64,000 bases of DNA from IMG/VR virus record IMGVR_UViG_3300035188_001343; one strand, given 5' to 3'. Each line of letters begins with the position of its first letter. Position 1 is the stretch's first letter. This document shows, one piece after another, positions 4,477 through 36,257 of the stretch. This DNA is from an uncultured virus (IMG/VR IMGVR_UViG_3300035188_001343) (lineage: Duplodnaviria; Heunggongvirae; Uroviricota; Caudoviricetes). The position numbers and the translations under genes are program-made. The notes beneath the pieces are model-generated. The model made no database searches and had not been told where the DNA came from. It saw only the letters and a program-made list of their open reading frames with translations.

Positions 4477-4800
4477 ATGAAAGATATTAATGAGTGGGAG
4501 ATTTTAACTCCAGAGGGATGGCGTGATTTTTCGGGAATTATCCAATTAGATAAGAAAGTTATCACTATTGAATTTGATAATGGTAAACAGTTAACAGGTA
4601 GTGAAACACATCGAATTTTTTCTAAAATTGGAATACAAGAATTTAACACTTTAATGGTTGGTGATGAAATCAAAACCAATGATGGTTGGACTGTGGTAAC
4701 TAAAATTTCAGATGTAAAACAAACTCAGAAAGTATATGATTTGGTAGAAGTAAAATCAGCTAACCATCAATATTATACCAATGGTTTTGTTTCAAAAAAT
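4477..4800 (+). mobile_element. atypically split intein, long C-half (108 aa)
   Basis: ILTPEGW, block B TGSETH, block F VYDL, block G YYTNGFVSKN followed by Cys+1; no block A. Confidence 0.88.
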
Positions 4801-5265
4801 TGTGATGAGATTGCGTTTATTCCCAACAGAATTCAGGAAGAATTTATGTCTGGCACAACACCGGCTCTTTCTGCTACAAAAGGAAAAATGTTAATTACCT
4901 CAACGCCCAATGGTTCGAGAGATTTATTTGCGAAACTTTGGTTTGGATCCGGTATGACATGGGATAAAAAACAATATACATACGTCAGAAAAAATGAACC
5001 AAAAAACCTTTTTAGTCCATTATTTGTACCTTTTTGGATTGACCCAGAAAAAAACACTGATGAATGGATTCACAGAGAAAAGATGACTCTCGATAGCCCA
5101 ATAGCATGGAAAATAGAGTTTGAATGTATGTATCCAGATACGTTGATTGATGTATATGATGAAAAAACTAAAAATTATCAAACAATAACTATAGAAGATA
5201 TGTATCGAATGATACTTCGAGATGAAATTGAGAATAAAGTTATTATTGATGAATCTGATAATTAG
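4477..5265 (+). CDS. terL: terminase large subunit, middle fragment flanked by split-intein halves (IntC-extein-IntN)
   Basis: Extein 4801-5124 has Walker B CDEIAF and coupling motif ITSTPNG and ends in EFE; intein halves on both ends. Confidence 0.88.
   Translation: MKDINEWEILTPEGWRDFSGIIQLDKKVITIEFDNGKQLTGSETHRIFSKIGIQEFNTLMVGDEIKTNDGWTVVTKISDVKQTQKVYDLVEVKSANHQYYTNGFVSKNCDEIAFIPNRIQEEFMSGTTPALSATKGKMLITSTPNGSRDLFAKLWFGSGMTWDKKQYTYVRKNEPKNLFSPLFVPFWIDPEKNTDEWIHREKMTLDSPIAWKIEFECMYPDTLIDVYDEKTKNYQTITIEDMYRMILRDEIENKVIIDESDN
5125..5262 (+). mobile_element. atypically split intein, short N-half (46 aa)
   Basis: EFE|CMYPDTLIDV...ITIEDMY is block A, then a stop; resembles IntN of known atypically split TerL inteins. 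Confidence 0.82.
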
Positions 5266-5273
5266 AGAAATAT

Positions 5274-6437
5274 ATGTTGTTGAAAGAAAAAATGATATTG
5301 ATAGAATTCATAATATTCGCAAAAAACAATATTAATAATATCGCTGAAAATCCAACAGATACGTTCATCGATAAAGTGGTTGAAATTTACCATCGCAAGA
5401 AAAATGTTGAATTTAAAAACCCACTAGCAAATGAATTTCCTAGAGCACCTAATACACTTGAATATTGGTTACACCGTGGATGGAATGAAAAAGAAGCAGA
5501 GAAAAAAAGGTGTGAAAAAATTCTCGCTAGTAGTTGCTCATTACAAGCTTTAATTGCTAAACATGGTGAAGAAAAAGGGTATCATTTGTTCACCGAAATC
5601 AATACTAAAAAATCAAATACTTTGGATGGTTTCATTAGAAGACACGGTGATGAAATAGGAAAAAAATTGTACGCTGCATATACCCTAAAAATGTCCACAC
5701 AAAATACTTTAGTTGGGATGATTGAAACTTATGGTGAAATTGAGGGTAATGAAAGATATAACACTATGATTTCTGGTAAGATACATAACTTAGAAAGTGT
5801 TATTAAGCGATATGGGGAAGAAGAAGGTAAAAAACGATACACTGCTAGTAATTTAAAAAGAAGTAAATCACACAGTTATGTGGGGTTCGTTGAAAGGTTT
5901 GGTTCTTACGCTGACCAAAAATGGGAGGAATTATCAAAAAATCGATCATATAGAACAACAGTAGATTATTATATTGAAAAATATGGGGATGATTTAGGGA
6001 GAAAAAAACATACCGATTGGTTTAAATCATCGATTGGTGGTGATTTTAGTCAAAGTTTTTCAAAAACATCTAAAATGTTATTTGAAAGTTTAAAAAATAA
6101 TGAATTTGCTCAATTTGGTTGTAATGAAGCTTTAATTGAATTAACTACAGATGAACAATCAGTTTTAAATAGGAAATTTATTCGCCCCGATTTTTTACTT
6201 GATAACAAAATAATTGAATTTTACGGAACCTATTGGCATTGTCATGAATCCATGTTTGCTGCAGATCAGATACATCCACAGTTTAATAAGACAGCAACAG
6301 ATATACGAAACTACGATTGTAAGAAAAATGAGGTGTTGAAATTGAAAGGGTTTGATGTTTTGGTTATTTGGGAACATAATTATTATGCTAACAAAGAAGG
6401 TATTATTGCACAGTGTAATGACTTCTTAAATCAATAA
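5274..6437 (+). CDS. free-standing Vsr-like (homing) endonuclease with (K/R)(Y/H)GxExG repeats
   Basis: Repeats KHGEEKG, RHGDEIG, RYGEEEG; C-terminal PDF...IEFYGTYWH...GFDVLVIWE; directly follows a split IntN. Confidence 0.8.
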   Translation: MLLKEKMILIEFIIFAKNNINNIAENPTDTFIDKVVEIYHRKKNVEFKNPLANEFPRAPNTLEYWLHRGWNEKEAEKKRCEKILASSCSLQALIAKHGEEKGYHLFTEINTKKSNTLDGFIRRHGDEIGKKLYAAYTLKMSTQNTLVGMIETYGEIEGNERYNTMISGKIHNLESVIKRYGEEEGKKRYTASNLKRSKSHSYVGFVERFGSYADQKWEELSKNRSYRTTVDYYIEKYGDDLGRKKHTDWFKSSIGGDFSQSFSKTSKMLFESLKNNEFAQFGCNEALIELTTDEQSVLNRKFIRPDFLLDNKIIEFYGTYWHCHESMFAADQIHPQFNKTATDIRNYDCKKNEVLKLKGFDVLVIWEHNYYANKEGIIAQCNDFLNQ

Positions 6438-6458
6438 TACCACTAAGTTACTTACAAA

Positions 6459-6968: not shown

Positions 6969-7059
6969 AAGTGGTTTTCCTATTAATTAAAGTTTTAACT
7001 ATTTATCAACCCGAAATGTAAAATTACAAAATTGATTACATTGAAAGGAGAGTTAGACT

Positions 7060-8523
7060 TTGAGAACCATATTAAAATTTATATTGATTACACTACTTTT
7101 GTTATTACCCGTAGTATTGATAACAAATCTAGGTGTGATACAACCTTCATACTATCATATTATTATAAATCAAATTTACAATACGGTAATTATAGTTTTG
7201 TCTGTATGTTTTATTACTACTATTGTTGGTGTAACACTATCATGGGTATTTGCAATTTACGATTTCCCCTTTAAAAATAGTTTGGAAAAAATAATTATTT
7301 TAGGTATGGTTTTTCCAAGTTATGTATTGGCATTTTTTTATTCCGAAATGTTTAATATCTTTGGTTCAATTGCGTTAATTGGTACTTTAGTTGTTACCAC
7401 ATTACCTTATGTTTTTATGATGGTAACTACCAGTATCCGAATACAATCCCAACGTATGGTTGAATCGGCATTGATGTTTGGTAAAGATAAGAGATGGATA
7501 AAAGGTAAATTGATATTGCCATTAATTTTTCCAACAATCGTTTTATCAACATTATTGGTTATGGGAGATACATTTTCTGAATTTGGTGCCACTTATTTTT
7601 ATGGTGTTAATACTGTGATGACTGGAATTTACGAAATTTGGTTTGGTTTGAATGAATCTATACAAGGGATACGATTGTCAGCATGGTTGTTAACAGTTGT
7701 TATAATGGTATATTTGGTTATTAATGTTTTGAAAAAAGTATTTGTTGATAAATCCGATAATTTTATAAACAGTCGTGAATTTAAAGGTATAGTGGTCGAG
7801 AATATAGGTATTAAAGGTTGGTTTATAACTTTTTTAATATTCTTACTAACCATTATTACTTTTTTTATACCTTGTTTCGTGTTATTAACATGGGTAATTG
7901 AAAGTTATAACAAAACCGATTGGTTTAAAGTTTTAGCAACCACAATTAATTCGGGAATCTTAGCATCAATAATATCTTTAAGTGTATTATGTGTTACCAC
8001 TATAATTTTATATTTGTTTAAGCATCGGCTAGTGGCAATAATGACAATTTGTAATACGTTGTATTCAATACCAGGTATTGTTTTGGCAATAACGACAATC
8101 TTTATATCTACACATCTTCCATTGAGTTTTACACCTGTTATATTTTTGTATGTTTTAATAGTCAAGTATATTGCAATTGGTGTTGATAATATTAGTGCTC
8201 CAATTCAAAAAATTCATAAACAACATTATCACTCCTCAAAATTGTTAGGTCATAGTTCCTTATGGTATATTAAAAATGTTCAGTTTCCATTAGGTTTTCA
8301 AATATATTTGGTTGCAGGATTATTAGTTTGGATCGATGTCATTCGGGAATTAGTAATAGGGTTGACTATTAGACCACAGGGATTAAATTTATTAAGTATC
8401 GAAATTTTTAGATTTATGGATTTAGAACAATTATCTATGAGTGGTCCTTGGATTTTATCTATGGTTATTTTAACAATGGTTCCAATTTATTTTATAAATA
8501 TGGTTTTAAAGCAAAATAGGTAA
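7060..8523 (+). CDS. fbpB: Fe3+ ABC transporter permease (FbpB/FutB-like)
   Basis: About 12 hydrophobic segments; EAA-like loop MVESALMFG; SEFGA and DVIREL motifs; TTG start after AAAGGAG. Confidence 0.85.
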   Translation: MRTILKFILITLLLLLPVVLITNLGVIQPSYYHIIINQIYNTVIIVLSVCFITTIVGVTLSWVFAIYDFPFKNSLEKIIILGMVFPSYVLAFFYSEMFNIFGSIALIGTLVVTTLPYVFMMVTTSIRIQSQRMVESALMFGKDKRWIKGKLILPLIFPTIVLSTLLVMGDTFSEFGATYFYGVNTVMTGIYEIWFGLNESIQGIRLSAWLLTVVIMVYLVINVLKKVFVDKSDNFINSREFKGIVVENIGIKGWFITFLIFLLTIITFFIPCFVLLTWVIESYNKTDWFKVLATTINSGILASIISLSVLCVTTIILYLFKHRLVAIMTICNTLYSIPGIVLAITTIFISTHLPLSFTPVIFLYVLIVKYIAIGVDNISAPIQKIHKQHYHSSKLLGHSSLWYIKNVQFPLGFQIYLVAGLLVWIDVIRELVIGLTIRPQGLNLLSIEIFRFMDLEQLSMSGPWILSMVILTMVPIYFINMVLKQNR

Positions 8524-8529
8524 ATCTGT

Positions 8530-9435
8530 ATGTTTGATGTAAAAAATCTAAACCTAATAATAGATGATGTTGATATTCTACACAATATAAACTTTGATAT
8601 TCATAATGGTGAAATACTTTCTATTATTGGACCGAGTGGTTGTGGTAAATCATCTATTTTAAAATCTATAGCTGGAATTTATAAACATACTACAGGGGCA
8701 TTAATATTAGATGGTGAAAATATCGCGGACAAACCTATTAATCTCAGAAATGTCAACTTAGTTTTTCAAGATTTCCCTTTGTTTCCACATATGACTACTA
8801 TACAAAATATGCTTGTTGCCTGTGATAATAACCGAGTTATTGATATAGTCCTCGATGAAATGGGTATCAAACATTTAAAATTTAAATATCCTCATGAAAT
8901 GAGTGGTGGTGAACAACAACGAGTTGCATTAGCTCGTGCGATAGTGTATAAACCCAAATTATTATTATTGGACGAACCATTTTCAAATATTGATGTGCTA
9001 ACCACAAAAGTATTGAGACATAAAGTATTTAATTTATTGAAGCAATTTAATATTACTACTCTAATGGTTACACATGATTTGGATGATGTTTTTGAAATGA
9101 GTGAAAGATGTATCGTTATGAAAAATTCGAGTATTGTACAGTTTGATACTTTTGATAATTTATACAATTATCCAGTTGACGAATATGTTTCAACTTTATT
9201 CGGTAATGTTGTTTCTTATGCAGGTAAAAATTATAGACCAGAAAATATATTAATTATTGCAGATTATTCACCTAATTCCGTTAAAACTGTAATTAAAAAT
9301 GTAAAATTTAAATCACATTATAATGAAATAACTTTAGAATTGGATAATAAACAAGATATCATTGTTTTTGATTATTATCGTAAAAAGTATAAAATTAATG
9401 AGATTATGTATTTGAATTTTAATAACCCATTATAG
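8530..9435 (+). CDS. fbpC: ABC transporter ATP-binding protein (FbpC-like)
   Basis: Walker A GPSGCGKS, Q-loop VFQD, signature MSGGEQQR, Walker B LLLDEPFS, H-loop VTHD. Confidence 0.92.
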   Translation: MFDVKNLNLIIDDVDILHNINFDIHNGEILSIIGPSGCGKSSILKSIAGIYKHTTGALILDGENIADKPINLRNVNLVFQDFPLFPHMTTIQNMLVACDNNRVIDIVLDEMGIKHLKFKYPHEMSGGEQQRVALARAIVYKPKLLLLDEPFSNIDVLTTKVLRHKVFNLLKQFNITTLMVTHDLDDVFEMSERCIVMKNSSIVQFDTFDNLYNYPVDEYVSTLFGNVVSYAGKNYRPENILIIADYSPNSVKTVIKNVKFKSHYNEITLELDNKQDIIVFDYYRKKYKINEIMYLNFNNPL

Positions 9436-9447
9436 GAAAAACATATT

Positions 9448-10443
9448 ATGAAGAAAAATTTATGGTTGCTACTTTTTTTGTTTGGTATTTATAATGCATC
9501 TGCTTCAGATAAAAAGAGTATTCATGTTATTACTGATAGAAGTGATGCACACTTATTAGATTTAACATCAAAATTTGAAAAAGAAAGTGGTGTTGAAGTG
9601 AATTTAACATTCGTTAAAAATGGCATTATTGAAAAAGTAAAAAGTTATGATTATGATGCAATTATCAGTAAGGATAGTAGTGAATTAGTTGCGGCGAAAG
9701 ATGAGGGGTTGTTACATACTATTGATGATAGTGTGCTAGACAACATTCCAACCAATTTTAAGGATATTGATAAACAATGGTTTAATATGAGCTATAGAAT
9801 TAGATCATTTCATATGAAGAAAGGTTTAACAGATGCACCAACATCGTATGAGGATTTAGCAAAACCCCAGTATAAAAATAGAATTTGTATTAGAAGTTTA
9901 ACTCACAATTACAATTTAGAAATGTATGGAACTATGTTATCATATATGGGTGAGGAGAAATTTACTAACTGGTTTAAAGGATTTAAATCGAATATAGTTA
10001 AAGATTCGGCAGCAGGAAATGATAGAACCCAGGTTAAAGGTGTGTATGATGGTGAATGTGACATAGCAGTTGCAAATTCATATTATCGTGGATTGATGTT
10101 ACAAGATCCGGAGCAAAAAAAATGGGCAGAAGCAACATATTTATACATACCTAACCAAGAAAACGGTAGAGGAGCGATAGCATTGTATTCTGCAGTAGGT
10201 TCGTTATCGGATAATACCAATAATAAAACATTTTTGAATTATTTAATTTCAAAAGAAACGCAACAACAGTTATCATATGATAATTATGAATATCCAATTA
10301 AAACTGAAAATACATCACCTACTGTTAAACAATATGGTGATGCACAGAAATTGGACTATAAATCAATCAAATTATTTGATAATGTTCAAAACGATTTATT
10401 TGAATTGAGAAAAAAAGCTTATTTAATTATTAAAGCCAACTAA
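9448..10443 (+). CDS. fbpA: Fe3+ ABC transporter periplasmic binding protein (FbpA/FutA-like)
   Basis: Signal peptide MKKNLW...ASA; SYEDLAKPQYKNRICIRS, HNYN, GNDRTQ, GECDIAVANSYY (tandem Tyr iron ligands), NYEYP. Confidence 0.88.
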   Translation: MKKNLWLLLFLFGIYNASASDKKSIHVITDRSDAHLLDLTSKFEKESGVEVNLTFVKNGIIEKVKSYDYDAIISKDSSELVAAKDEGLLHTIDDSVLDNIPTNFKDIDKQWFNMSYRIRSFHMKKGLTDAPTSYEDLAKPQYKNRICIRSLTHNYNLEMYGTMLSYMGEEKFTNWFKGFKSNIVKDSAAGNDRTQVKGVYDGECDIAVANSYYRGLMLQDPEQKKWAEATYLYIPNQENGRGAIALYSAVGSLSDNTNNKTFLNYLISKETQQQLSYDNYEYPIKTENTSPTVKQYGDAQKLDYKSIKLFDNVQNDLFELRKKAYLIIKAN

Positions 10444-14637: not shown

Positions 14638-14952
14638 TTGGTATTTAATTATACAAATAGGATAAACATGGAAATCTTGGATATTTCAACAGTTCGTGAA
14701 AAAACTATCAATTCACAACCCATTGAAAAAGAATATGATACTATGATTTCTGACTGGAATAATATCATTGATTGGACATCTAATAATCACTTTGGATATA
14801 CTAAAATTTGGTTTTATGAGCATCAACTCGAAGAATTAGAAACTGATATTTTACATGTTTCTAATTTGTATAGGGTTGGTGGTTATAAAGTGAGTGACAT
14901 CGGGTTTGATAAATACTTCTCTTATTATTTTGTAGAGATATCGTGGGCATGA
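14638..14952 (+). CDS. hypothetical protein
   Basis: ORF; true start probably the internal ATG after AGGA. Confidence 0.55.
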   Translation: MVFNYTNRINMEILDISTVREKTINSQPIEKEYDTMISDWNNIIDWTSNNHFGYTKIWFYEHQLEELETDILHVSNLYRVGGYKVSDIGFDKYFSYYFVEISWA

Positions 14953-15419
14953 CAATATTTCTTGATAAAATCAAAGATTTGTTAACTGTACAGAAAAACA
15001 TTATAATTTCTGATATTACCCCAGTTATACATGTGGCCCATATAACTAACAATGGGTATCTACATTTGGGAATTGAATTTCATGAGGAGTTACAGGTAAG
15101 AATGTTATATCATGGTTTTAAACCAAATAATGTGTGGCAGTTATCACTTACGGGGTTATTTGACGAACATGAAAACATAATCACTTATATATCGGAACAT
15201 TATTTAACCATACAGGTAACAAATAATCGGTGGTATCAATTAGATTTATTCACCGATAATGAGGTAAGTGATTACAGTTTAACTATCGAAAGTATTGAAT
15301 TCTCGAAAGTAGTTAAGTCACTATTACAGTTATCAGAAGAAAAAACAATCCATTTAAGAGTTAGAATTGGTGAGTCAAATTGGTCAGAAATAGTGAAATT
15401 TGATGTTTCAAAAATTTAG
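14943..15419 (+). CDS. hypothetical protein
   Basis: ORF overlapping the upstream stop. Confidence 0.55.
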   Translation: MGMTIFLDKIKDLLTVQKNIIISDITPVIHVAHITNNGYLHLGIEFHEELQVRMLYHGFKPNNVWQLSLTGLFDEHENIITYISEHYLTIQVTNNRWYQLDLFTDNEVSDYSLTIESIEFSKVVKSLLQLSEEKTIHLRVRIGESNWSEIVKFDVSKI

Positions 15420-15643
15420 GAACCAAATTATCTACCTAAGAGGAGATTAAACTCAATGAATCATAATCGTGTTTTGATGGTGTATGAACAATCTAAGAAA
15501 AAATTACTACCTCACAATATCACTAAAATATGGGAATATATTTCTCATCACATTCCAACTAAAAAAATACCAGTTAAAACTTTTTTATCACCAAAAAATA
15601 TTGTAAAATTGTTATCATCAACAATAAAATAGGATATTAAATT

Positions 15644-15937
15644 ATGGCTAAGAAAGACACAACCACATCTACATCTAAAAGTGCCACACCTAAAAAAAAT
15701 GATTTATTCACCAAAATGAGAAAAAACATTCTTAAAAAGAATGAAGATGCAATGTTAGATTTAACGGAACCTACTGTTTGGGCATCATCTGGAAATTATG
15801 TATTAAATCATATTTTGAGTGGTAGATTTCATAGAGGTTATCCTTCTGGAAGAATTGTACAAATTTTTGGTGATTCTGGGTGTTTATTGCCACATGAAAA
15901 AATAAAAGTGTATGAATTCAAATCAAATATTGTATGA
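15644..15937 (+). CDS. uvsX: UvsX/RecA recombinase, fragment 1 plus 18-aa IntN
   Basis: SGNYVLNHILSG...GYPSGRIVQIFGDSG is the RecA N-terminus up to the first half of Walker A; then CLLPHEKIKV (block A, 15881-15934). Confidence 0.9.
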   Translation: MAKKDTTTSTSKSATPKKNDLFTKMRKNILKKNEDAMLDLTEPTVWASSGNYVLNHILSGRFHRGYPSGRIVQIFGDSGCLLPHEKIKVYEFKSNIV

Positions 15938-16000
15938 AATACTTGTTAAATTATTATAAAACTAACAATCAAAAAATAAAAAACTTTATTGGAGAACAAA

Positions 16001-17323
16001 ATGATTGAAAACAATGTTAGAGAATTAACTGATAAAGAAAAATTACTGGAATTAAAAGAATGGTATTCCTCTGATGAATTATCAAAATCCCTTGATGTTA
16101 CTGAAGAAATGCTTGGTAATTTTTTAAATGATAAAAGTTCTTTTACATTAACAAATTCTGAGAAATTGAACGATTTTTTTAATAACCATGTTCATGAAAA
16201 TTCAAAATTTGAAATGATTAAAAATGTTTATGGTTTGTGGGAAACTGATGAAAAACAATTTATGGTTGATACTCCTGATGGGTTTCAATTTGTTAGTGAA
16301 TTTATTCATAAAGATTCAAGAAGTTGCTTTGACTTAAGAACCGATAATTTTCATATTGAATGTTCGGGTGACCATTTGATTGAAACTGATAAAGGTTGGG
16401 TGAAAACTGAAGATATTGTAGTTGGTTCAAAAGTGTTAACCCGTGTTGGTTTTGAGGAAGTTAAATCAAATGCACAACTTAGTGATAGTGATGTTTACGA
16501 TATGACTGTTGAACATGATAATCATCGATATTGGGGTGGTGCCGGTATTTCATCACATAATTCTGGTAAATCTTTTCTTATGGCTAAAGCGATTGTTGAG
16601 GCTCAAAAAGAAGGTTATATGGTGGCAGTATTAGATTCGGAACAAGCGGTTTCACAGGATTATTTGAAAAAAATTGGGGTTGATTTAGACCCATCAATGT
16701 TAATGACTGTGCAGGTACAAACAGTTGAACAAACTCAAGATATGCTTCTAGAAGTTTTGGAAGGTGTTAAGGAAGAACAAGAAGCTTTAGGAAATACCAA
16801 AGAACTAAAATTATTACTGATTGTTGATTCCATTGGTATGCTTTCATCTGGAAAAGCACTAGCAAATGCTGAAGCTGGACATCACGCGGCTGATATGGGT
16901 ACTAAAGCAAAAGCATTAACCAATATGTTCAACCAAATTGTACAAAAAGTTGGTATTACTGAAACTGTTTGTTTAGTAACTAATCATGGAGCATTAGAAG
17001 TTGGAGTTATGTTCCCACAACTCAAACCAAAAGGTGGACAATGTTTAGTAGCAGGTACAAAAGTACAAACTGATAAAGGTTATAAAAATATTGAAGAAAT
17101 CCAAGTTGGTGATATGGTGAGAACACACTTGAACCAAATTAAACCTGTTGAAAAATTATTTAGTTTCGATAATCTTGATATTCTTAATTTTGAATTAGAA
17201 ACAGGACAAAACATTAAAATGTCGAAGGATCATAAAATGTTAGTTTTGCGAAATGGTGAAAAATTGTGGTTGGAAGCTCAATTTATAACTACTTATGATT
17301 CATTGTTAGCACTTGATGTTTAA
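16001..17323 (+). CDS. uvsX: UvsX/RecA recombinase, fragment 2 (IntC1-extein-IntN2)
   Basis: GGAG RBS before ATG 16001. IntC1 16001-16561 ends SSHN|SGKS. Extein has LDSEQA, Walker B LIVDSIG, MGTKAKAL, VTNH, PKGGQ. IntN2 17042-17320 starts CLVAGTKV and has block B SKDH. Confidence 0.92.
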   Translation: MIENNVRELTDKEKLLELKEWYSSDELSKSLDVTEEMLGNFLNDKSSFTLTNSEKLNDFFNNHVHENSKFEMIKNVYGLWETDEKQFMVDTPDGFQFVSEFIHKDSRSCFDLRTDNFHIECSGDHLIETDKGWVKTEDIVVGSKVLTRVGFEEVKSNAQLSDSDVYDMTVEHDNHRYWGGAGISSHNSGKSFLMAKAIVEAQKEGYMVAVLDSEQAVSQDYLKKIGVDLDPSMLMTVQVQTVEQTQDMLLEVLEGVKEEQEALGNTKELKLLLIVDSIGMLSSGKALANAEAGHHAADMGTKAKALTNMFNQIVQKVGITETVCLVTNHGALEVGVMFPQLKPKGGQCLVAGTKVQTDKGYKNIEEIQVGDMVRTHLNQIKPVEKLFSFDNLDILNFELETGQNIKMSKDHKMLVLRNGEKLWLEAQFITTYDSLLALDV

Positions 17324-17336
17324 TAATTAAATGGAT

Positions 17337-17369
17337 TGGGGTGGATATTGAAATCCACCCCATTTTTTT
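17337..17369. terminator. probable bidirectional intrinsic terminator
   Basis: TGGGGTGGAT-ATTGAA-ATCCACCCCA followed by T7; lies between convergent genes. Confidence 0.8.
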
Positions 17370-17864
17370 ATTGTACAGCCCCATATCTAGAACCAGTAAC
17401 CAACCATGTAATTGAACTGTTTCCACTTATTGATGCACCACCTGAACCACCACCTGAACCCATATCGTTGTATGATGTTTTACCACCGCCACCACCACAG
17501 ATTGCACCTGCTTGACCTGTAAATGCTGAACCGCCTGTACCTGCTGTCCTACCATATGAGTTAGAACCATTAGTTCCGTATGTCGCACCTATCCAGTTTT
17601 CAGTACCACTTCCCCATGGTGAAGCACCACCAGCACCACCTTGAGTTTGTGTACCACTGTTACCATTACCACCAGCGGCATAACCAAAACTTGTTTCCGT
17701 TCCACCTGATGCAGGTGAATTATTCGAATCGGACTGTCTAGCAGTTGTTTCTGCAGCTAAATTAGTAGTTAAAGTTGCATCTGCAGCTTGTCTCGCAGTT
17801 ACCTCATTTGCAATATTGGTAGCAACAACACTACCGATTTTTTTTTAAATATTGAATCGACCAT
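17368..17864 (-). pseudogene. frameshifted glycine-rich tail-fibre/gp38-like adhesin (165 aa if one A is added in an A9 run)
   Basis: AGGAG RBS and ATG at 17864; A9 run at 17838-17846; shifted frame reads EVTARQAADATLTTNLAAETTARQ, then Gly-rich blocks, ending GGASISGNSSITWLVTGSRYGAVQ-stop. Confidence 0.72.
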
Positions 17865-17944
17865 TTGTATCTCCTATTTAATAACTATTAAAAATCGGTA
17901 TGATTTTTTGAATGAATCCACTTGTGTGGAATATGTTATATTTA

Positions 17945-24461: not shown

Positions 24462-25439
24462 ATGAAAATGAAAAAAAGTGTTGATATAATTATAGCAGAA
24501 ATGTTTGATAATTACGATATTAACGCAGATGATGATGCAAAAGATGATTTTTGGCATGAATTAACCGATGAAGAACAATATATGGTTAATAGTCGAGTAC
24601 AATTAGAAAATGGGAATCCCAAATATGACTATCTTTCATGTTCAGAACCAGGTAGATTCGATAATAATGAAGTTGTTACCGATTATGAAACTTTATATGA
24701 GGTTGACTATAAATGGTGGGAATTTCAGAAAAAATGTAGATGGGATGGCATTGAGGAAATGAAAGGTCATATGAATGCAAATGATACTGAATATTATTCC
24801 CCACAAAAAGTTTCGGAAGTTATTAACGCATTTAACGATGATTATGATGGAGGTTATACTATTTACCTTACTGGCGATTGGTATCGGTTGATTGAAAATG
24901 GTAAACTTTTATATTCACAATTTATTTCCGCCAGATGGTATTTGTATTATGAACTTGAAAATTTATTGGATACTTTGGGTGATGAAAATATTCCTTATTC
25001 TTACAAAGATAGTGATGATAAATTGATGTTTATCAATGAACCCGATGCTGCTAAGAAATATGATGCCCAAGGAAGGGAATATGAGTTGGAAAGTTTTAAT
25101 TGCGAAATTATGAAATATCAACATGATGAAATGATTGATAAAATTGATGTGGTTGTTGATAAGTATAAGTGTAAATTTAGTGGAAAAGTATTTAGAACTC
25201 AACGTGATGAGACTATTGTCAATGATTGTGATGATTTTGTTGATTTTATTTTTTATGATGAACAGTCGTTAAAAAATGTTTCTCCAAAGAATTTTTTAAA
25301 AACATTTAAACAAAATCAGGAAGAATTTTCCGAATTTGCATTGTTATTTTCTGAATTGGTGAAAATAGTTACTGATGATTTTTATAGAATATATGATGCA
25401 AATAAACTTAAATACAGTGACACCATTAGTTATTCTTAA
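24462..25439 (+). CDS. hypothetical acidic protein
   Basis: 325-aa ORF; no motif recognised. Confidence 0.7.
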   Translation: MKMKKSVDIIIAEMFDNYDINADDDAKDDFWHELTDEEQYMVNSRVQLENGNPKYDYLSCSEPGRFDNNEVVTDYETLYEVDYKWWEFQKKCRWDGIEEMKGHMNANDTEYYSPQKVSEVINAFNDDYDGGYTIYLTGDWYRLIENGKLLYSQFISARWYLYYELENLLDTLGDENIPYSYKDSDDKLMFINEPDAAKKYDAQGREYELESFNCEIMKYQHDEMIDKIDVVVDKYKCKFSGKVFRTQRDETIVNDCDDFVDFIFYDEQSLKNVSPKNFLKTFKQNQEEFSEFALLFSELVKIVTDDFYRIYDANKLKYSDTISYS

Positions 25440-25466
25440 AATTACTACCTTTGTTGGGGTTATATT

Positions 25467-26177
25467 ATGCTTAGTGAATTTTGTGAATTGATTGCAGCAG
25501 AAAATGTCGATGAATTAAAATTTAAAATGATCGAAATTGGAGCACATTATAATATCATAGTAACATTTGAAGATTTTCGTGATGAATACTACAATTGGTC
25601 TACATACTCAAACATTATTGTTGTTGGGCATTATGATAACTTAGATATGATGATTGCATCATTTTTTCATGAATTAGGTCACCACACATCTAAATTTGAT
25701 AAAAATGGATATAAAAAATTGAAATTTCACCAAGAATTAGATGCATGGAATGCAGGATTAATTATTGGGCATGCTAATGGTTATTATATAAAACCTGATA
25801 CTTATCGAAAATGTATGGATAAAATGTTGTATTCTTATATCCCCTATGACATTAGAGAATATTCGGGATTTTATCAATCACCAGCAGCAAATTATTTTTA
25901 TGGTGAAAATAATATAAAATTTTGGACTTATTATAATAATATTTTTTCTTTTAACATTAACGATAATAATTTAATTACATCAATATTTGAAAACCGAAAG
26001 TTTATAACTGAAAATAAAAATATGTTTGAAATTGATAATCATCTAAAGCAAAATATTATGCGAGCAGATAAAAAGTTATTTACTATTTACACACAGTACA
26101 ATGTCCCAGAATATCATGAGAATAAAAATTTTATGATACTTAGAGATACTGTAGGGTTATTATCTTTTAATGTTTAA
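25467..26177 (+). CDS. HExxH zincin-like protein
   Basis: FFHELGH ... QELDAW. Confidence 0.6.
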   Translation: MLSEFCELIAAENVDELKFKMIEIGAHYNIIVTFEDFRDEYYNWSTYSNIIVVGHYDNLDMMIASFFHELGHHTSKFDKNGYKKLKFHQELDAWNAGLIIGHANGYYIKPDTYRKCMDKMLYSYIPYDIREYSGFYQSPAANYFYGENNIKFWTYYNNIFSFNINDNNLITSIFENRKFITENKNMFEIDNHLKQNIMRADKKLFTIYTQYNVPEYHENKNFMILRDTVGLLSFNV

Positions 26178-26215
26178 ACAATACTATTACTTTCACATAT
26201 TTTAATGAGGAAAAA

Positions 26216-26692
26216 ATGAATACTTTCAAATTAGAATTGAATATCGTTTATCCAAATTCAGATGAATTTAATGAACACACATTAAATGCCAGAATTTTTG
26301 TTGATGGTGAAGAACTTTCTACTGAATTTGTTTCACTGTATGATTTGTTTAACAGTTTAAAAAAACCAGGTGAACATTTTATTTATAATTGTTCGTGCTG
26401 TGTGCCGGGTTGTGCTAGAATTGCTAATGGTGTTATGGTTAAACATAAATTGTATAAAATTCGATGGAAAACAAGGTTGCCGGCATCATATACAGGATTC
26501 AAAAATTACCATGTTTATTTAAAAAAGGTAAAGAATAGAACATTTGAATTTGATAAACATCAAATGATAACAGCAATTAAAGATGAATGCTATAAATTTT
26601 TAGAAATCATTCCACCTGATATTATCTTTGATGAATTTGACGATAATTCTACATTCATCACTGAAAAATTTGAAACATTGAAAAGTATCTGA
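26216..26692 (+). CDS. hypothetical protein with CSCCxxGC motif
   Basis: GAGG RBS; IYNCSCCVPGC. Confidence 0.6.
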   Translation: MNTFKLELNIVYPNSDEFNEHTLNARIFVDGEELSTEFVSLYDLFNSLKKPGEHFIYNCSCCVPGCARIANGVMVKHKLYKIRWKTRLPASYTGFKNYHVYLKKVKNRTFEFDKHQMITAIKDECYKFLEIIPPDIIFDEFDDNSTFITEKFETLKSI

Positions 26693-26891
26693 GTAAATTA
26701 TAAATATGAAAAAAGATCCAAATACATACTGTATTAACTATGAAGAAAATATTGGTTGGGAACTTTTACATGATTTGGTTGCTCATCCATTAATGGCACT
26801 AACCTTATATAAATCGAAATTAGTGATTTCCTTTCACGATTTTACATCTTCTAAAGCCTGGATTAGAAAAAACTAACACGAGTAAAAAAAT

Positions 26892-27806
26892 ATGACTGAA
26901 TTATTAATTAAATTGCGTGAGTTAAGAAATTTTGATCCTGACAATTATATTGATTTGAAAACGAAACAAATCAACGAATTTTTCAAAATTAACAACTTGG
27001 ACTCTGTAATCTTAGGAATATCTGGTGGTATTGATTCGGCAACCACATTAGCGTTGTTAATGCGTTCAGCTAACATAGTTGGTTCACCAATAAAAAAAGT
27101 AGTTGCTATTTCTATGCCTATTTTTTGTAGTGGGACGACTGGTCAAGTTGATGCAATAAACATTGCACTCGATGATATTGAAAAATATAAATCTGATAAA
27201 AAATTTAAAATACAAGTTGATGATTTGTCAAAAGCACATTCTGCTTTTTTAGAACAGCGAAAAGGCGAATCTACACCATTTTCATCTGGGCAATTGGCAT
27301 CTATTGTTAGAACACCACATTTGTATTTTAACGCTGCTATTTTACAAACTGAAGGATACAAATCTCTTGTTTGTGGAACTACAAATCGAGATGAAAGTTA
27401 TCTTATTGGTTTTTATGGAAAAGCATCCGATGCGATGGTTGATTTACAACCTATATTTGATATTCACAAAAGTGAGGTATATCAAATTGCAAAAAAAATG
27501 AATGTTTCCAATGAAATAGTGGAACGTCAACCAATGGGTGATGTTTTTGATGGAAAAACGGATATTGAGATGATTGGAGCATCATATGATTCTATCGAAT
27601 TGGCTGCACATATTAATGAATATCATTTGTTTATCAATGATAATGTGTATCTTAGTGAACTAAGAAACACATTTACTGAGTCCGCAGAATATAAAAATAT
27701 TTTTAAATTACACCATATTAATAGTCATAAATATAAAGTGGGATTACCATTTCATATTTTAAGTGTTTTTAAACAACATGATCGATGGGAAGATTTTAAT
27801 CAATGA
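26892..27806 (+). CDS. nadE: NH3-dependent NAD+ synthetase
   Basis: PP-loop LGISGGIDS, GTTNRDE, GFYGKASD, PIFDIHKSEVYQIAK, TDIEMIGASY, HK. Confidence 0.9.
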   Translation: MTELLIKLRELRNFDPDNYIDLKTKQINEFFKINNLDSVILGISGGIDSATTLALLMRSANIVGSPIKKVVAISMPIFCSGTTGQVDAINIALDDIEKYKSDKKFKIQVDDLSKAHSAFLEQRKGESTPFSSGQLASIVRTPHLYFNAAILQTEGYKSLVCGTTNRDESYLIGFYGKASDAMVDLQPIFDIHKSEVYQIAKKMNVSNEIVERQPMGDVFDGKTDIEMIGASYDSIELAAHINEYHLFINDNVYLSELRNTFTESAEYKNIFKLHHINSHKYKVGLPFHILSVFKQHDRWEDFNQ

Positions 27807-28573
27807 ATAAAATTCCAAACCACATTACTCCTACGTCTAATTGTATTCCTGGATTTTGGGAAGTACCAAAAACTGAATTGAAACTTAAATCTCACAATGT
27901 TGTTAAAACAGAAATAATGACACACGTTAAATCGTTAGAAGGAATACTTGATGATGACTCATGTGATGCTATCATTTCTTTATTTAATTCATCAAAAATA
28001 GAATCTGCTGTATCGGTTTCTGGTTTAATGAACGATAGTTATGGTGTGGGTTCAATTAGAACTACTGGTTGGTCATTAGATATTGCAAATGAATTAACAA
28101 AATTAATTATTCCACATTTAGAAATAAAAATGTGTGATGATTTAACCCCAACAGATTGGTGGCAAAATGATGGTGGTAAACTTTGGAAACCTCATTCTGT
28201 GTCACCACTTTTAAGATTTATGCGTTATAATAAAGATAGTGAGCATTATGCACATTATGATACAGGTTATATATACGATTCAAATTTTAGAACATTAAAA
28301 TCGATGGTTATTTATTTGACGAATAATAAAATCGGTGCTACTAGATTCATCGAGGATTATCAGCAGAATATTCCCATACAGTTTAGACATCATCATGATT
28401 GGCATTCAAGAGTAGATAAATCTGAAATAATTGCTTCATGCTATCCAGAAAAAGGTAAAGTGCTGTTATTCGATCATAGGTTATGTCATGATGTTGAAAA
28501 GTATGATGGCATGGAATCATCTGGAAGAATTATTATACGTGGTGATATAATTTATGAACGATTGGAAAATTGA
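27803..28573 (+). CDS. 2-oxoglutarate/Fe(II)-dependent oxygenase
   Basis: RFMRY, HYD, VIYL, GATRF, LLFDH.LCHD, RIIIRGD. Confidence 0.85.
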   Translation: MNKIPNHITPTSNCIPGFWEVPKTELKLKSHNVVKTEIMTHVKSLEGILDDDSCDAIISLFNSSKIESAVSVSGLMNDSYGVGSIRTTGWSLDIANELTKLIIPHLEIKMCDDLTPTDWWQNDGGKLWKPHSVSPLLRFMRYNKDSEHYAHYDTGYIYDSNFRTLKSMVIYLTNNKIGATRFIEDYQQNIPIQFRHHHDWHSRVDKSEIIASCYPEKGKVLLFDHRLCHDVEKYDGMESSGRIIIRGDIIYERLEN

Positions 28574-31589: not shown

Positions 31590-32297
31590 ATGCTTAGTAA
31601 AGAAGAACTTTTAGAAAAACGAAAACAAATAAAGAAACGTATTTGGGATATTGAACAAATCCTAAAAAACAAATCACTGGTATCCGTAGTCGATTTTGCT
31701 TCAATGTATCCATCAATTCTTAGATTGTTAAATGCTGCTATTGAATCGTTGGTTGGTTTTCTTGATGATGATCCAATCGCATACAGAAAAGTAGGATTAT
31801 CAAAAACTTTTTTGGATTCCAAAGAAAAATCTAAGGAGCTAGTAAAAACTACTTTAACTGATAGTAGACACGTTAAATTTGTAGGTAAAAATGATGAAAA
31901 AGTTTCATTGCGACTAGATTTATATGCTGGAAAATATGATGAATCGACTATTGATGATATAACTGAAACACCATTTGAACGGTATTTTTTAGCATCTATG
32001 GGTGTATTTGATCCCGATCAAACGGAAATAAAATTTCAAGGTAAAATTTATACAGTTGCACAACTAAATAAATATTTTAAAGAAATGAATTACAGTGTGA
32101 GTGGTAGCGGTAGCGTTTTTGAAAAAACTGGTAAGGATGGTAAACAGGGTCTTATTCCAAGTTATTTAGAATATATGTTTGTTGAGAGAAAAATACAAAA
32201 AAAAGCCGCTTTCGGACATTTCAAAAATAAAAATACCCTACAACGTTTTAGAAAAGCAGCAATTGCAGATGGATTATATACCGAGGTAAAAAAATGA
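31590..32297 (+). CDS. family B DNA polymerase, second fragment (motif A to first fingers helix) with N-terminal coiled coil
   Basis: AGGAG RBS; SVVDFASMYPSI is motif A; SGSGSVF and GLIPSYLEYMFVERKIQKK; stops before motif B. Confidence 0.9.
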   Translation: MLSKEELLEKRKQIKKRIWDIEQILKNKSLVSVVDFASMYPSILRLLNAAIESLVGFLDDDPIAYRKVGLSKTFLDSKEKSKELVKTTLTDSRHVKFVGKNDEKVSLRLDLYAGKYDESTIDDITETPFERYFLASMGVFDPDQTEIKFQGKIYTVAQLNKYFKEMNYSVSGSGSVFEKTGKDGKQGLIPSYLEYMFVERKIQKKAAFGHFKNKNTLQRFRKAAIADGLYTEVKK

Positions 32298-32708: not shown

Positions 32709-32757
32709 AACACAATACCGAGATTTACACAGTGATACATGTTAATTTAATATGTAA

Positions 32758-33479: not shown

Positions 33480-33491
33480 TATAATATATTT

Positions 33492-33830
33492 TTGCCTTAT
33501 CTTATAAATTATATGAACGAATTTTTTACTAAAAATGTGGATGGCACATTTGAGCCTGTTGGTTATGAATTTACTGGTTGGCCAGCTAATGGAATATGGT
33601 TAGTTGAGGATTCCAGACAAAGTTTAATTTATCCGTATGAAGGGGTAGAAAAAAAACCTACACCCTCATTGATTAGTTATTTACAATATCAGAATGAATT
33701 ACAGGAACATTTAACCCAACAATGGAAAGATAAACCATTATCGATTATGGATATTGCTGCTATTTCCTGTGAATTTTTTGCAATTAAAGCTGGTGCTATA
33801 TCAGTTTTAGGTGAAATTATTGAGAATTAA
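33492..33830 (+). CDS. hypothetical protein
   Basis: GWPANGIWLV; start probably the ATG at 33513. Confidence 0.55.
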   Translation: MPYLINYMNEFFTKNVDGTFEPVGYEFTGWPANGIWLVEDSRQSLIYPYEGVEKKPTPSLISYLQYQNELQEHLTQQWKDKPLSIMDIAAISCEFFAIKAGAISVLGEIIEN

Positions 33831-34467
33831 AATGAAGGATATAAGAATTATTTTGGTAGAAACACTTTTACAATTAAATTCGTTACCCACAGATAGAATA
33901 ATTGGTTTGTATCCATTTGGGTCCGTTATGTATGGTACAACTCACCAAAAATCAGATTATGATTTTGTGGTTATTTTGGATGTAGAAGGTGAATTGTATA
34001 TGCAATATGAAACCACCGATTTGGATTTGCATGTTATGTCAATTGAGACATTTAAAAATAAATTACTGGATCACGATATATTGGCACTTGAAACATACTT
34101 CAATGATTCACCAATTGTAGCATTGCCGGCAATTGATTTTAAGTTAGATTTAGTTAAATTGCGTCATAAAATTTCTGCGATTGTTTCAAATAGCTGGGTT
34201 AAAGCTAAGAAAAAATGTTTAATAGAAAATGAAAACCACTTTGTTGGATTAAAATCATTATTCCATTCGTGTAGAATACTTTCATTCGGACTACAACTTG
34301 CCGAAACTGGGAAAATTACTGATTTTAGTTGTTCGCAGGAAATTTGGTATGAGATTTTGAAGATGGATGCAGATGGTATTGGAATCATTGAAATTATGTT
34401 AAATTTTAAACCACAACATAATGCAAATGCTACCAAATTTAGAAATTTAACACCTAAAGAGTATTAA
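33811..34467 (+). CDS. Pol-beta superfamily nucleotidyltransferase
   Basis: FGSVMYGT...SDYDFVV (GS plus DxD), DLHV, C-terminal KSLFHSCR. Confidence 0.8.
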   Translation: MKLLRIKMKDIRIILVETLLQLNSLPTDRIIGLYPFGSVMYGTTHQKSDYDFVVILDVEGELYMQYETTDLDLHVMSIETFKNKLLDHDILALETYFNDSPIVALPAIDFKLDLVKLRHKISAIVSNSWVKAKKKCLIENENHFVGLKSLFHSCRILSFGLQLAETGKITDFSCSQEIWYEILKMDADGIGIIEIMLNFKPQHNANATKFRNLTPKEY

Positions 34468-34542
34468 CAAACTAATGATTTCAAAAACTAAAAATATTGA
34501 TTTTTGAATCAAAACTATGATAAAAATTGAGGAGAGTTAGTA

Positions 34543-35220
34543 ATGAAATTTGATTATAAAGGAAATTCATATAAACTTATTTTATTGAGTGTTACTGGAT
34601 CGAGATTGTACGGTACTTTTTATGATAGTGCCGATCCAGATAGACAACATCCATTTTTACAAAATTATTCGAGTGATGACGATTTTAGAGGAGTTATGGT
34701 TGCTCATCCTGATACCAAAGTTGGTTTGGAAGGTAAAATAGAAGAAATTGAGTTGAAGAAAGATTCTGATGGAAATGTAACACAGGATAGTATTGATTTG
34801 ATTGACGAAATTAATAAAAAATTAGGAAAACAGGTTCTTAAACATGATGCCGATCTAATTATTTACGAAGTAAAAAAATTCATTAAATTGGCATTAGAAA
34901 ACAATCCAAATATAATGGATATTATTTATACCGATGATGATGCGGTTGTTTACGAAAACAAAAAAGGTAAAAAATTAAGAAAAAATGGTAAAGATATTTT
35001 TATGTCTTTAAAAACCAAATTTACTTTTTCCGGTTATGCTGTTGGTCAATTAAAAAGAATTAGAGGTACCATTCAATATTCTGACAAGACATTGAAAATT
35101 TTAACAGAGGCTTTGAAATCTGGTGATATTGATGATGCCTGGTTACAAAACAATTTTAAAGGTTTGCATAGACAAAAATTAATGCAAGATCACATTAAAG
35201 TTATCAATCATACTACCTAG
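34543..35220 (+). CDS. RlaP/NrdC.11-like nucleotidyltransferase, N-terminal fragment
   Basis: VTGSRLYGT, SDDDFRGV, YEVKKFIKLALENNPNIMDII, FSGYAVGQLKRIRG. Confidence 0.82.
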   Translation: MKFDYKGNSYKLILLSVTGSRLYGTFYDSADPDRQHPFLQNYSSDDDFRGVMVAHPDTKVGLEGKIEEIELKKDSDGNVTQDSIDLIDEINKKLGKQVLKHDADLIIYEVKKFIKLALENNPNIMDIIYTDDDAVVYENKKGKKLRKNGKDIFMSLKTKFTFSGYAVGQLKRIRGTIQYSDKTLKILTEALKSGDIDDAWLQNNFKGLHRQKLMQDHIKVINHTT

Positions 35221-35234
35221 ATAGGGATTTAAAA

Positions 35235-36257
35235 ATGAATGTAAATGAAATTTTTGAAAAATATAACACTGATGAATCATTGACCTATGAACAGTTTGTA
35301 ACACCTAGTTTTTCTGGTGGTCATAATAAATGGATAAATCGGTATCCAAAAACAAATGTGGTTTTTAAAATTTTAGAACGTGCATGTTTGAAAAATGATA
35401 TTGATTATAATTGGATAACAGATTTTTTTGGTGGTAATGTATCCACTTATGTTTTAGGTATAAGTCAGCAAGATGCAAATAAATTAGGAAAACAAGTATC
35501 AATTAGTTGGGATGAATTCACTGAAAAATACTGTGACGATGATGCTTCTGAAACAACGATTACTGCTGATGAAATAAACACATACCGAAAACCAAAATTG
35601 GTGGATTATGTAACTGTAAAAAATTTAAAAGCCCAAAAAATACCAATGTCAACTTCAATATATGAATTTATTAATAAACCTTTAACCGATGGTCAAATAT
35701 CAATTTCTGATTTACAAATGACTGTTAGGGATTTTTTGATGAATTTTGCGAGTTTTCGGTCTATATCAAAAACACAATATAACATTTTTACATCTGTCAA
35801 TGGTAAAGGTGGTATTTTTGGTAGAAATGGGGATTTGAAGGCAATTGAACCTGTAGAAGTAGGAGAATTTTTATTCCAGGTAAGTATCGATGAGTTGAAC
35901 TATAAACGTGATGTAGATGAAATTCAAAAATTGTGGGAGTGGAGAACAGGTCGCAATGAATTGCGTGGAAAATACGAGGAACATTTTGGGTACGATGTAA
36001 AGCATATGAGTCATTTGTTTAGATTACTATTAGGTGCTATTAATATTCTCGAAACGGGTGAGTATCACCCTAGATTAAAAGGTGAAAACCTCAAATTTGT
36101 TAGAAATATTTTACGTGGTCAATATACTTACAATTATTTAATTGAATATACCTCGGTGTTGGAAGAAAAGATGGAAGAGGCTTATAAAACCTCTACTTTA
36201 CCAGAAACAGCTAATCATAAGAAAGCCAACAAACTACTTTTGGAATTATCATACTAA
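35235..36257 (+). CDS. RlaP/NrdC.11-like nucleotidyltransferase, C-terminal fragment
   Basis: GHNKWIN; WEWRTGRNELRGKYEEHFGYDVKHMSHLFRLL; IRxG.Y-like ILRGQY; STLPE. Confidence 0.8.
   Translation: MNVNEIFEKYNTDESLTYEQFVTPSFSGGHNKWINRYPKTNVVFKILERACLKNDIDYNWITDFFGGNVSTYVLGISQQDANKLGKQVSISWDEFTEKYCDDDASETTITADEINTYRKPKLVDYVTVKNLKAQKIPMSTSIYEFINKPLTDGQISISDLQMTVRDFLMNFASFRSISKTQYNIFTSVNGKGGIFGRNGDLKAIEPVEVGEFLFQVSIDELNYKRDVDEIQKLWEWRTGRNELRGKYEEHFGYDVKHMSHLFRLLLGAINILETGEYHPRLKGENLKFVRNILRGQYTYNYLIEYTSVLEEKMEEAYKTSTLPETANHKKANKLLLELSY

Follow-up and report, generated by a model that had tools for sequence, protein, structure and literature searches.

How does a phage maintain its packaging motor, its recombinase and its DNA polymerase if the genes for these proteins lie in pieces? 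This question is raised by 64,000 nucleotides (nt) of DNA from an uncultured virus of the Caudoviricetes (IMG/VR record IMGVR_UViG_3300035188_001343), referred to here as the window. Between positions 4477 and 36257, the genes for the large terminase subunit (terL), a UvsX-like recombinase (uvsX), a DNA polymerase and an RlaP-type nucleotidyltransferase are each found in separate open reading frames (ORFs). An initial interpretation made without database searches, in the following called the sequence-only reading, had described these four broken genes as well as six intein halves from four inteins, and both observations were confirmed in the translations. We favor, with a probability of about 0.78, the explanation that core genes of this T4-like lake phage are encoded in pieces which are joined or assembled as proteins.

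The window corresponds to bases 225534-289533 of one linear virus contig of 306,333 bp with a GC content of 30% and a completeness of 85% as estimated by CheckV. T4-type gp23, gp20, gp15, gp25, gp53 and gp5 were identified on the contig by Pfam. A 10-kb query had no megablast match among cultured phages, and the polymerase exonuclease domain is ~27% identical to its jumbo-phage counterparts. Logan contigs with near-identical sequence were obtained from 24 lake or freshwater metagenome runs, belonging to 24 studies; at least half of the sampled words were present in six of these 24 runs, and two runs are a possible source of the contig. Relatives were counted as clusters at 90% identity. IMG/VR scans with single proteins, for which piece 3 of terL, piece 2 of uvsX and piece B of the polymerase were used, returned zero or trivial relatives and alignments were needed as queries.

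The terL gene consists of four pieces, all of which are present on the contig, on both strands and spread over 60 kb. They were located by in-genome phmmer, a long-IntC profile and a tail scan, where IntN and IntC denote the N-terminal and C-terminal halves of a split intein. Piece 1 (contig 184957-185298, minus strand) ends with ..ASRQMSK|C and the IntN of intein a, which has 32 amino acids (aa). Piece 2 (contig 169358-170110, minus strand) comprises the partner IntC (..SHN|TTIGAF..), an extein ending ..KFVY|C and the 33-aa IntN of intein b. Piece 3 is the ORF in the window (4477-5265, plus strand). It begins with the atypically split 108-aa IntC of intein b (4477-4800), which ends ..FVSKN before Cys+1, continues with a 108-aa extein (4801-5124) containing Walker B (CDEIAF) and the coupling motif TSTPNG, and closes with the 46-aa IntN of intein c and the stop codon (5125-5265). 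This IntN begins CMYPDT, and its partner IntC opens piece 4 (contig 200201-201511, minus strand; ..THN|CAFITF..), which then encodes the nuclease domain. The breaks lie at the Walker A lysine (intein a), at Walker B (b) and before the nuclease domain (c). The summed exteins amount to ~600 aa, that is 636 with piece 1 taken from stop to stop and ~34 fewer from the chosen piece-1 start. The extein of piece 3 matches the terminase large subunit family phrog_36964 (E 1.9e-10). The sequence-only reading had recommended a search for the missing terL pieces, and three were found on the same contig.

This split organization is conserved. At E <= 1e-5, 77 clusters are related to terL piece 3; the best 56 are mostly 246-302 aa long, with >90% query coverage and 40-67% identity. 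Invariant in a 20-sequence alignment are D110 and E111 of Walker B, the coupling core S142-T143-P144 and C217 of the IntN, and N108/C109 and H45 are nearly so. The IntC of intein b is conserved in 16 aligned relatives of the same architecture. Relatives with fused pieces also allowed a check of the predicted junctions. In P0052 pieces 2 and 3 are fused and read through as ..KFVYCDEMAFI.., and in P0055 pieces 1-3 are fused and read ..SRQMSKT-TLAAAY.. The two fusion points coincide exactly with the predicted sites, and therefore the predicted junctions of terL inteins a and b are the true extein junctions. In the 290-kb relative G002, terL pieces 1 and 2 are fused and piece 4 lies 80 kb away. 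Here intein b shows the classical fractured-gene layout, in the order IntN, a 726-aa endonuclease-like ORF, a 446-aa ORF and IntC. The present genome is a more scattered descendant of such a G002-like terL state. An intein at the Walker B site of terL seems to be widespread among phage sequences, as 505 stretches related to the arrangement of IntC and Walker B were found in IMG/VR, including five records of 132-135 kb, and Campylobacter phage terminase genes match it with ~32% identity over residues 5-226.

The uvsX gene is encoded in three pieces on the plus strand. Piece 1 (15644-15937) contains a 79-aa extein ending FGDSG, followed by the 18-aa IntN of intein a, and corresponds to positions 1-84 of the UvsX-like recombinase family phrog_97 (E 6.5e-10). 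Piece 2 (15989-17323), with a probable start at ATG 16001, covers phrog_97 positions 83-239 and matches Pfam RecA (E 2.8e-11). It is composed of the IntC of intein a up to 16561 (..SSHN|SGKS), a 160-aa extein (16562-17041) and the 93-aa IntN of intein b (17042-17320; ..KGGQ|CLVAGT). Piece 3 (18413-19081) starts with the 49-aa IntC of intein b (..ISSN), and its 173-aa extein from CMEF onwards matches phrog_97 positions 363-494 (E 1.6e-7). Predicted splicing would rebuild the P-loop GDSGSGKS and yield ..KGGQ-CMEF.. at the second junction.

The two uvsX spacers differ. While intein a has a spacer of 51 nt without an endonuclease, that of intein b measures 1.09 kb and contains, on the minus strand (17945-18256), a remnant of 103 aa representing the N-terminal zinc-finger part of a DUF7487-type endonuclease. 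The remnant has a paralog on the contig (272636-273118; phmmer E 3.6e-27, tblastn 44% identity over 97 aa), and the remainder of this gene was not detectable in the spacer by tblastn. The locus of uvsX intein b is a decayed fractured gene. The same spacer harbors a start-less Gly-rich frame of ~170 codons (window 17330-17900, minus strand), which resembles the tail-fibre-like Gly-rich proteins of the contig and causes a local rise of the GC content to 0.34.

The inteins belong to known families. The IntN/IntC lengths of the terL inteins (a 32/129, b 33/108 and c 46/111 aa) fit an atypical split between blocks A and B, with an IntN below ~50 aa and an IntC above ~100 aa. Assignment to the CatC family by PDB match (phmmer, 6DSL_B) covers the IntC of terL b (E 3.9e-7, residues 7-106) and of terL c (E 4.2e-4). 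The IntC of uvsX intein a matches VidaL (6VGV) with an E value of 4.4e-15 over 114 residues, and uvsX intein b is a canonical split intein. Cys is the first IntN residue in all four in-window inteins and in all five atypical inteins, of which the fifth is located in an AAA ATPase gene (see below). Block B was identified by eye in the TerL-b IntC (TGSETH), the UvsX-a IntC (CSGDH) and the UvsX-b IntN (SKDH). Block G ends with ..SKN|C, ..SHN|S and ..SSN|C in the window and with ..SHN|T and ..THN|C in the other terL pieces, so that the penultimate His is absent from two IntC ends (SKN, SSN). Pfam reports Hint_2 in uvsX piece 2 with 39.2 bits (cut-off 28.4), and Intein_splicing reaches 31.1 bits (cut-off 35.8). 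We propose that three atypically split inteins would ligate the four TerL polypeptides in sequence, and that an ultra-short VidaL-type split intein at the P-loop together with a canonical one would ligate the three UvsX polypeptides. The inteins would presumably act orthogonally.

The family B polymerase is broken in a different manner. It is encoded by at least three intein-less ORFs on the plus strand, which are 8 and 21 kb apart. Piece A (21420-23159, 579 aa) contains the N-terminal and exonuclease domains (Pfam DNA_pol_B_exo1, E 1.3e-15) and matches the RB69/T4 gp43 exonuclease (E 8e-11) and phrog_262 positions 37-377. Piece B (31590-32297, 235 aa; phrog_262 positions 399-492, E 1.4e-10) starts with a basic heptad head (residues 1-28), after which come motif A (VDFASMYPS), an insert and the first finger helix (ERK..KK). 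Judged by eye from the translations, the A/B break immediately precedes the motif A strand: piece A reads ..GLISY and then has an acidic tail of ~34 aa (23055-23156), and piece B has a 28-aa head followed by SLVSVVDFASMYPS. The net charges in the window are -5 for the A tail and +4 for the B head.

Both extensions were analyzed in relatives. Besides the window's own, piece A forms 43 clusters, mostly 555-582 aa and at most 630 aa long. The search, which used the C-terminal 200 residues as query, covered proteins of 318-1014 aa, and no fusion of A and B was found in the clade among them. The records of the relatives G001 and G002, both incomplete, yielded no piece A; likewise, uvsX was not found in either of these incomplete records at E 1e-5. 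In 41 of 41 anchored A tails, seven positions with a spacing of 4-3-4-3-4-3 are hydrophobic, and the intervening positions almost never are. A tails are net negative in 41 of 43 cases (median -6), and B heads net positive in 39 of 46 (median +3). In the B heads, positions -28, -21, -17, -14 and -10 are hydrophobic in 45-46 of 46 sequences. AlphaFold2 (AF2) predicted residues 4-27 of the head as one helix, with a mean confidence (pLDDT) of 75 for the piece B model. To our knowledge, such tail extensions are absent from RB69/T4 gp43. The sequence-only reading had proposed complementary coiled-coil tails. The heptad pattern and the opposite charges proved to be conserved, while binding itself is deduced from the sequence pattern: the acidic C-terminal tail of A and the basic N-terminal head of B may form a two-helix coiled coil that holds the two proteins together.

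Missing polymerase pieces had also been predicted, and one was located. Piece C (53734-54636) was detected by a six-frame search with PF00136 at E 8e-5, below the cut-off. It encodes a complete module of palm and fingers, in which motif B reads KLYLNLVYG and motif C reads YYIDTD, and it also has a KKxY-like motif and a thumb that is only a short stub. The profile of its family matches residues 473-635 of P. abyssi PolB (E 2.5e-10) and spans both finger helices, motif C and KKxY. The AF2 model has a pLDDT of 92, and among the Foldseek matches listed all are family B polymerases. In the best VIA match (Z 14.7, root mean square deviation 3.4 A, 234 residues aligned) residues 15-261 of the model lie on chain 326-638 of KOD. 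This range includes the palm part encoded by piece B, and hence B and C overlap. Tblastn of piece C against phages gave no match, and single-sequence PDB searches with pieces B and C returned nothing useful. ORF 54705-56069, downstream of piece C, was considered as a thumb candidate and rejected, as it looks nucleotidyltransferase-type (judged from Atlas features only).

Conservation in B and C appears complementary. Piece B is represented by 64 clusters; across 19 sequences D35, S38, Y40, R200, K201 and K204 do not vary, and the motif A Asp is present in 46 of 46. The 27 representative relatives of piece C have lengths of at most 300 aa. In 24 diverged sequences K138, N142 and D194 are nearly invariant, and the motif A position (Thr79 in the window protein) is never Asp, as seen by eye. 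These alignments suggest that the motif A Asp and the finger Arg/Lys are kept on B and the motif B and C residues on C, and we read the B/C split as a putative fission by partial duplication and complementary loss. The polymerase would then not be spliced; it would assemble non-covalently from at least three proteins, with B contributing the motif A Asp and the finger Arg/Lys and C contributing motifs B and C. The relative G001 possesses pieces B and C, ~53 kb apart. There, a group I intron-like element (L021 10104-10429) is inserted in piece B, within the Met codon of motif A (DFASM|YPS); it matches RF00028 over the whole model with 37.9 bits (gathering score 50) and E 6e-8. A complex prediction of PolA(330-579) with C and B gave a score of 0.12 and a mark of 0.32, which is uninformative either way.

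Several observations speak against a joining or assembly of the pieces as proteins. The TerL-b IntC has Lys instead of His before the terminal Asn, and the similarity between the IntN of terL a and b (12 of 27 residues identical, 44%) makes a cross-reaction possible. A Pfam scan of terL piece 3 gave 0 families. The contig is incomplete, so the unassembled part of the genome could contain an intact copy of a gene or another piece of the polymerase. Piece C alone models as a complete palm, including the strand that B would supply, which makes it difficult to see how the B motif A would reach the active site. When the profiles of B and C are compared by hhalign, they match weakly at motif A (probability 4%, E 0.0097). 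Phrog_262, the T4-type profile, detects A and B but not C, and no thumb-bearing piece was found on the contig, where piece C has ~65 residues after its KKxY-like motif.

The polymerase data leave room for an alternative that we regard as unlikely, namely that piece C is a separate PolB-derived paralog, perhaps inactive or accessory, and that the true fingers/palm-2/thumb piece is located in the unassembled part. A paralog would account for a self-contained palm and fingers equivalent to KOD 326-638, B-encoded region included, without the motif A Asp, and for the lack of a thumb piece on a contig that is ~85% complete. However, searches of the 306 kb with PF00136 and phrog_262 revealed no other polymerase part, conserved residues are distributed between B and C in a complementary way, and both pieces co-occur in G001. 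The nearly invariant motif B Lys/Asn and motif C Asp of the 24 diverged piece C sequences favor catalysis over decay. We retain the assembly of A, B and C as the preferred explanation. A more far-reaching version of it would combine a polymerase that is an obligate heterotrimer, arisen by duplication and complementary degeneration, with a zipper-like A-B tether and three mutually orthogonal inteins that order terminase assembly. Piece C would in that case retain an inactive copy of the palm-1/finger-helix segment, whose functional motif A Asp and finger Arg/Lys are on B. We consider this combination tentative, at somewhat below even odds.

The RlaP-type nucleotidyltransferase requires a different explanation. 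Its N-terminal Pol-beta-type nucleotidyltransferase and C-terminal helical domains are both present in two ORFs in different frames on the plus strand. The N-terminal ORF (34543-35220) matches Pfam RlaP with 39.9 bits (cut-off 23) and phrog_388 positions 37-179, and the C-terminal ORF (35235-36257) matches phrog_388 positions 225-329. By alignment to relatives, a segment of ~40 residues is covered twice, in a degenerate form at the end of the first ORF and in a well-kept form at the start of the second, where it follows a new 28-aa leader. Direct comparison of the two copies gave a 23-residue local alignment with a score of 44, equalled in 5 of 2000 shuffles. In the cultured phages A7_1 and fHe-Yen9-04 both halves form one gene. 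All four related contigs also have an unsplit frame of 498-519 aa (the fourth cut by the locus end), and this too counts against protein-level assembly as a general explanation. Since the gene is whole in all four relatives, the split is young, and it may represent a pseudogene or decay. The sequence-only reading had noted a duplicated subdomain at this break. The duplication exists, but it is a scar of breakage without a role as a joining mechanism. The gene would have been split recently by tandem duplication and may or may not still work. Just upstream (33811-34467) lies a second, shorter nucleotidyltransferase (NTP_transf_2, phrog_388 positions 31-140), which is a paralog and not a third fragment. 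A homologue of the anti-CBASS protein Acb1 (36142-36837, E 1.4e-34) directly follows the split gene.

The nucleotidyltransferase, split in one of five genomes compared and with one degenerate duplicate, is in line with the notion that some or all of the broken genes are pseudogenes or assembly artefacts, with intact copies elsewhere or a helper supplying the function. Moreover, the contig is an incomplete, linear metagenome assembly. We nevertheless consider this notion improbable. Four break points are spanned with 0 differences by Logan contigs of four independent lake runs, counting lake runs not flagged as a possible source of the contig. These are the junction of terL piece 3 and the endonuclease-like gene (5265/5274; two Logan records), that of uvsX pieces 1 and 2 (15937/15989; one record), the end of uvsX piece 2 (17323; three records) and the junction of polymerase piece A and the neighboring endonuclease-like gene (23159; two records). 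The uvsX piece 3 junction (18413), reached by a single contig extending 8 nt beyond it, was left out of this count, and small Logan joints with sides of 20-25 letters were regarded as noise. Piece boundaries and catalytic residues are the same across dozens of diverged clusters. All four terL pieces are present without an extra copy, and tblastn (E <= 0.01) revealed no second copy of any piece on the 306-kb contig; intact copies elsewhere, a possibility raised in the sequence-only reading, were not found there either.

A joining of the pieces at the RNA level, by introns or trans-splicing, is most improbable, for although the G001 intron-like element indicates that the clade uses RNA splicing at some sites, the 64-kb window contains no Rfam family at gathering score, the terL and uvsX breaks have complete intein blocks (Cys1, terminal Asn and +1 nucleophile), the terL pieces are distributed over the two strands at distances of up to 60 kb, and 12 of 12 pieces start with ATG, most of them preceded by a purine-rich Shine-Dalgarno-like stretch (30 nt upstream, by eye).

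If the pieces are joined or assembled as proteins, what broke the genes? Endonucleases or their remnants had been suggested at three of the breaks, and they are present at 5274, 17945 and 23156. The gene next to terL piece 3 (5274-6437, plus strand; phrog_22677 E 5e-23, phrog_13076 'endonuclease' E 1.6e-4) contains YG.E.G..Y repeats and a C-terminal DUF559/MTES_1575-like nuclease region. The gene at polymerase piece A (23156-24391, minus strand; phrog_22677 E 6.3e-29) is arranged tail to tail with piece A, with a 4-nt overlap. The two are free-standing and are paralogs of each other (phmmer E 2e-20). Their Pfam matches are below cut-off (MTES_1575 20.1 bits, cut-off 38.2; DUF559 16.5 and 16.3 bits, cut-off 20.6), and a PDB sequence search with both gave no match to Vsr or I-Bth0305I. 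A Vsr-like identity of both is plausible given this sub-threshold similarity, while the remnant at 17945 is DUF7487-type and not Vsr-like. GIY-YIG SegE-like genes adjoin terL pieces 2 and 4, and the contig ORF beside piece 1 (183571-184890) has no endonuclease features. Further DUF7487 ORFs are located on the minus strand of the window (37231-38289, 39916-41010 and 46540-47585, the third broken in two), with 'KYGV..P.Q' repeats and a C-terminal ..D-x-EVK-like end. DUF7487 is common to these ORFs, the uvsX remnant and the 726-aa ORF in the terL of G002, and is probably a homing-endonuclease family.

In the mechanism we propose, inteins and free-standing homing endonucleases would have broken essential genes in this clade, and the breaks would have become fixed. 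The earlier proposal that the lineage assembles its machinery from pieces under the influence of endonucleases agrees with the conserved splits of terL and polymerase, the flanking endonucleases and the in-situ stage seen in G002, but does not extend to the nucleotidyltransferase. The near-complete genome and its relatives show the path predicted for fractured genes, from intein invasion through endonuclease insertion, in-situ fracture and endonuclease decay to dispersal. They also show that a phage lineage can persist for long while its packaging motor, its recombinase and its polymerase are built from separate parts. The split family B polymerase, with catalytic residues apparently divided between two polypeptides, is a testable case. 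Natural split inteins with a short IntN that need to work side by side in one cell are of practical interest for the ligation of proteins from multiple fragments. Should the combined reading of a heterotrimeric polymerase and orthogonal inteins be true, the phage would offer a ready-made natural toolkit for that purpose.

Further genes on the contig are interrupted. The AAA ATPase gene (contig 1110-5032) carries the fifth atypical split intein, with a P-loop break ..GEPGIGK|C, a 29-aa IntN and an IntC ending ..IHHN|T; its halves are adjacent, separated by a 272-nt spacer without an endonuclease. The large subunit of ribonucleotide reductase (contig 106996-110468) consists of three ORFs (586, 344 and 163 aa) with two canonical split inteins (..GNL|CLSGDT.., ..VHN|C.., ..SHN|T..). 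The Toprim piece of topoisomerase II (contig 117459-118697) opens with an IntC, whose IntN partner was not located by the search. The portal protein (1055 aa, contig 63460-66627) has contiguous intein sequence, and thymidylate synthase (557 aa, contig 126567-128240) has a large insert. No intein motifs were seen in Hsp70/DnaK (contig 14835-17048), encoded in two ORFs of 205 and 440 aa, or in a UvrD-type helicase (contig 25265-28074), whose two ORFs enclose a DUF4379 zinc-finger ORF. The contig also encodes DnaJ, GrpE, Hsp20 and ClpP, and an Apyc1-like gene is present at contig 166220-167080. Downstream of the terL piece in the window, an ABC transporter trio of permease, ATPase and solute-binding protein was found (7060-10443).

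How do these arrangements compare with known systems? VidaL (6VGV/6VGW) resembles uvsX intein a in its IntC, and the IntN has 18 aa here. The VidaL IntN has ~16 aa. Different from VidaL, the genomic setting is visible here, a second, canonical split intein resides in the same gene, and the IntC has an N-terminal extension of ~70 aa. Splicing in vitro is described for the split inteins AceL-TerL, GOS-TerL and Cat, which are of natural origin or derived as a consensus and have an IntN of 25-37 aa and an IntC of 104-115 aa (PMC11766414). The terL inteins share with them (Cat, PDB 6DSL) the terL host, the short IntN and long IntC, Cys1, Cys+1 and, for two IntC, the similarity to CatC; unlike in those cases, three inteins interrupt one terL, whose four pieces occupy both strands and are dispersed across 60 kb.

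Fractured genes, in which split inteins are combined with free-standing GIY-YIG or Vsr-like endonucleases, were described in phage replication and packaging genes, including terminase (Dassa et al. 2009, PMC2677866). The same report includes a fractured gene that lacks an intein and has additional residues where it is broken, and the model given there predicts a later uncoupling (PMC2677866). Those cases are single loci on short metagenome reads, whereas here many breaks are found on one contig, together with a dispersed terL and a decayed uvsX endonuclease. The order described by Dassa (N-part-IntN, endonuclease, IntC-C-part) fits uvsX intein b, with a remnant only, and terL intein b of G002, but neither the terL inteins of the present genome, with parts 15-60 kb apart, nor uvsX intein a.

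For the polymerase, the nearest parallels are of two kinds. In the nrdA-a/mobE/nrdA-b locus of Aeromonas phage Aeh1, the break made by an endonuclease carries tails of opposite charge that are reported to be essential (Crona et al. 2011, PMC3045599), and a bicistronic gp43 is known from T4-related phages (Petrov/Karam, cited in PMC2677866). As described, Aeh1 NrdA shares with the A/B break an endonuclease-associated split without intein or intron and oppositely charged C- and N-terminal tails, and split gp43 shares a T4-type polymerase made from two proteins. In contrast to both, canonical heptad helices are found here in ~40 clusters, the polymerase has three pieces, and the second break is an overlapping degenerate duplicate. 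For the jumbo phage MIJ3 a single split PolB intein was reported (PMC6892783). In the literature searched, which included few subscription journals, no report was found of more than one atypical split terL intein per gene, of a multi-intein dispersed terL or of a three-piece heptad-tailed polymerase. Each mechanism considered here belongs to, or varies, a kind already described; their number in one genome is unusual. What is new is the density of breaks, the dispersed terL in four pieces and a polymerase in three pieces that combines conserved zipper-like tails with complementary degeneration.

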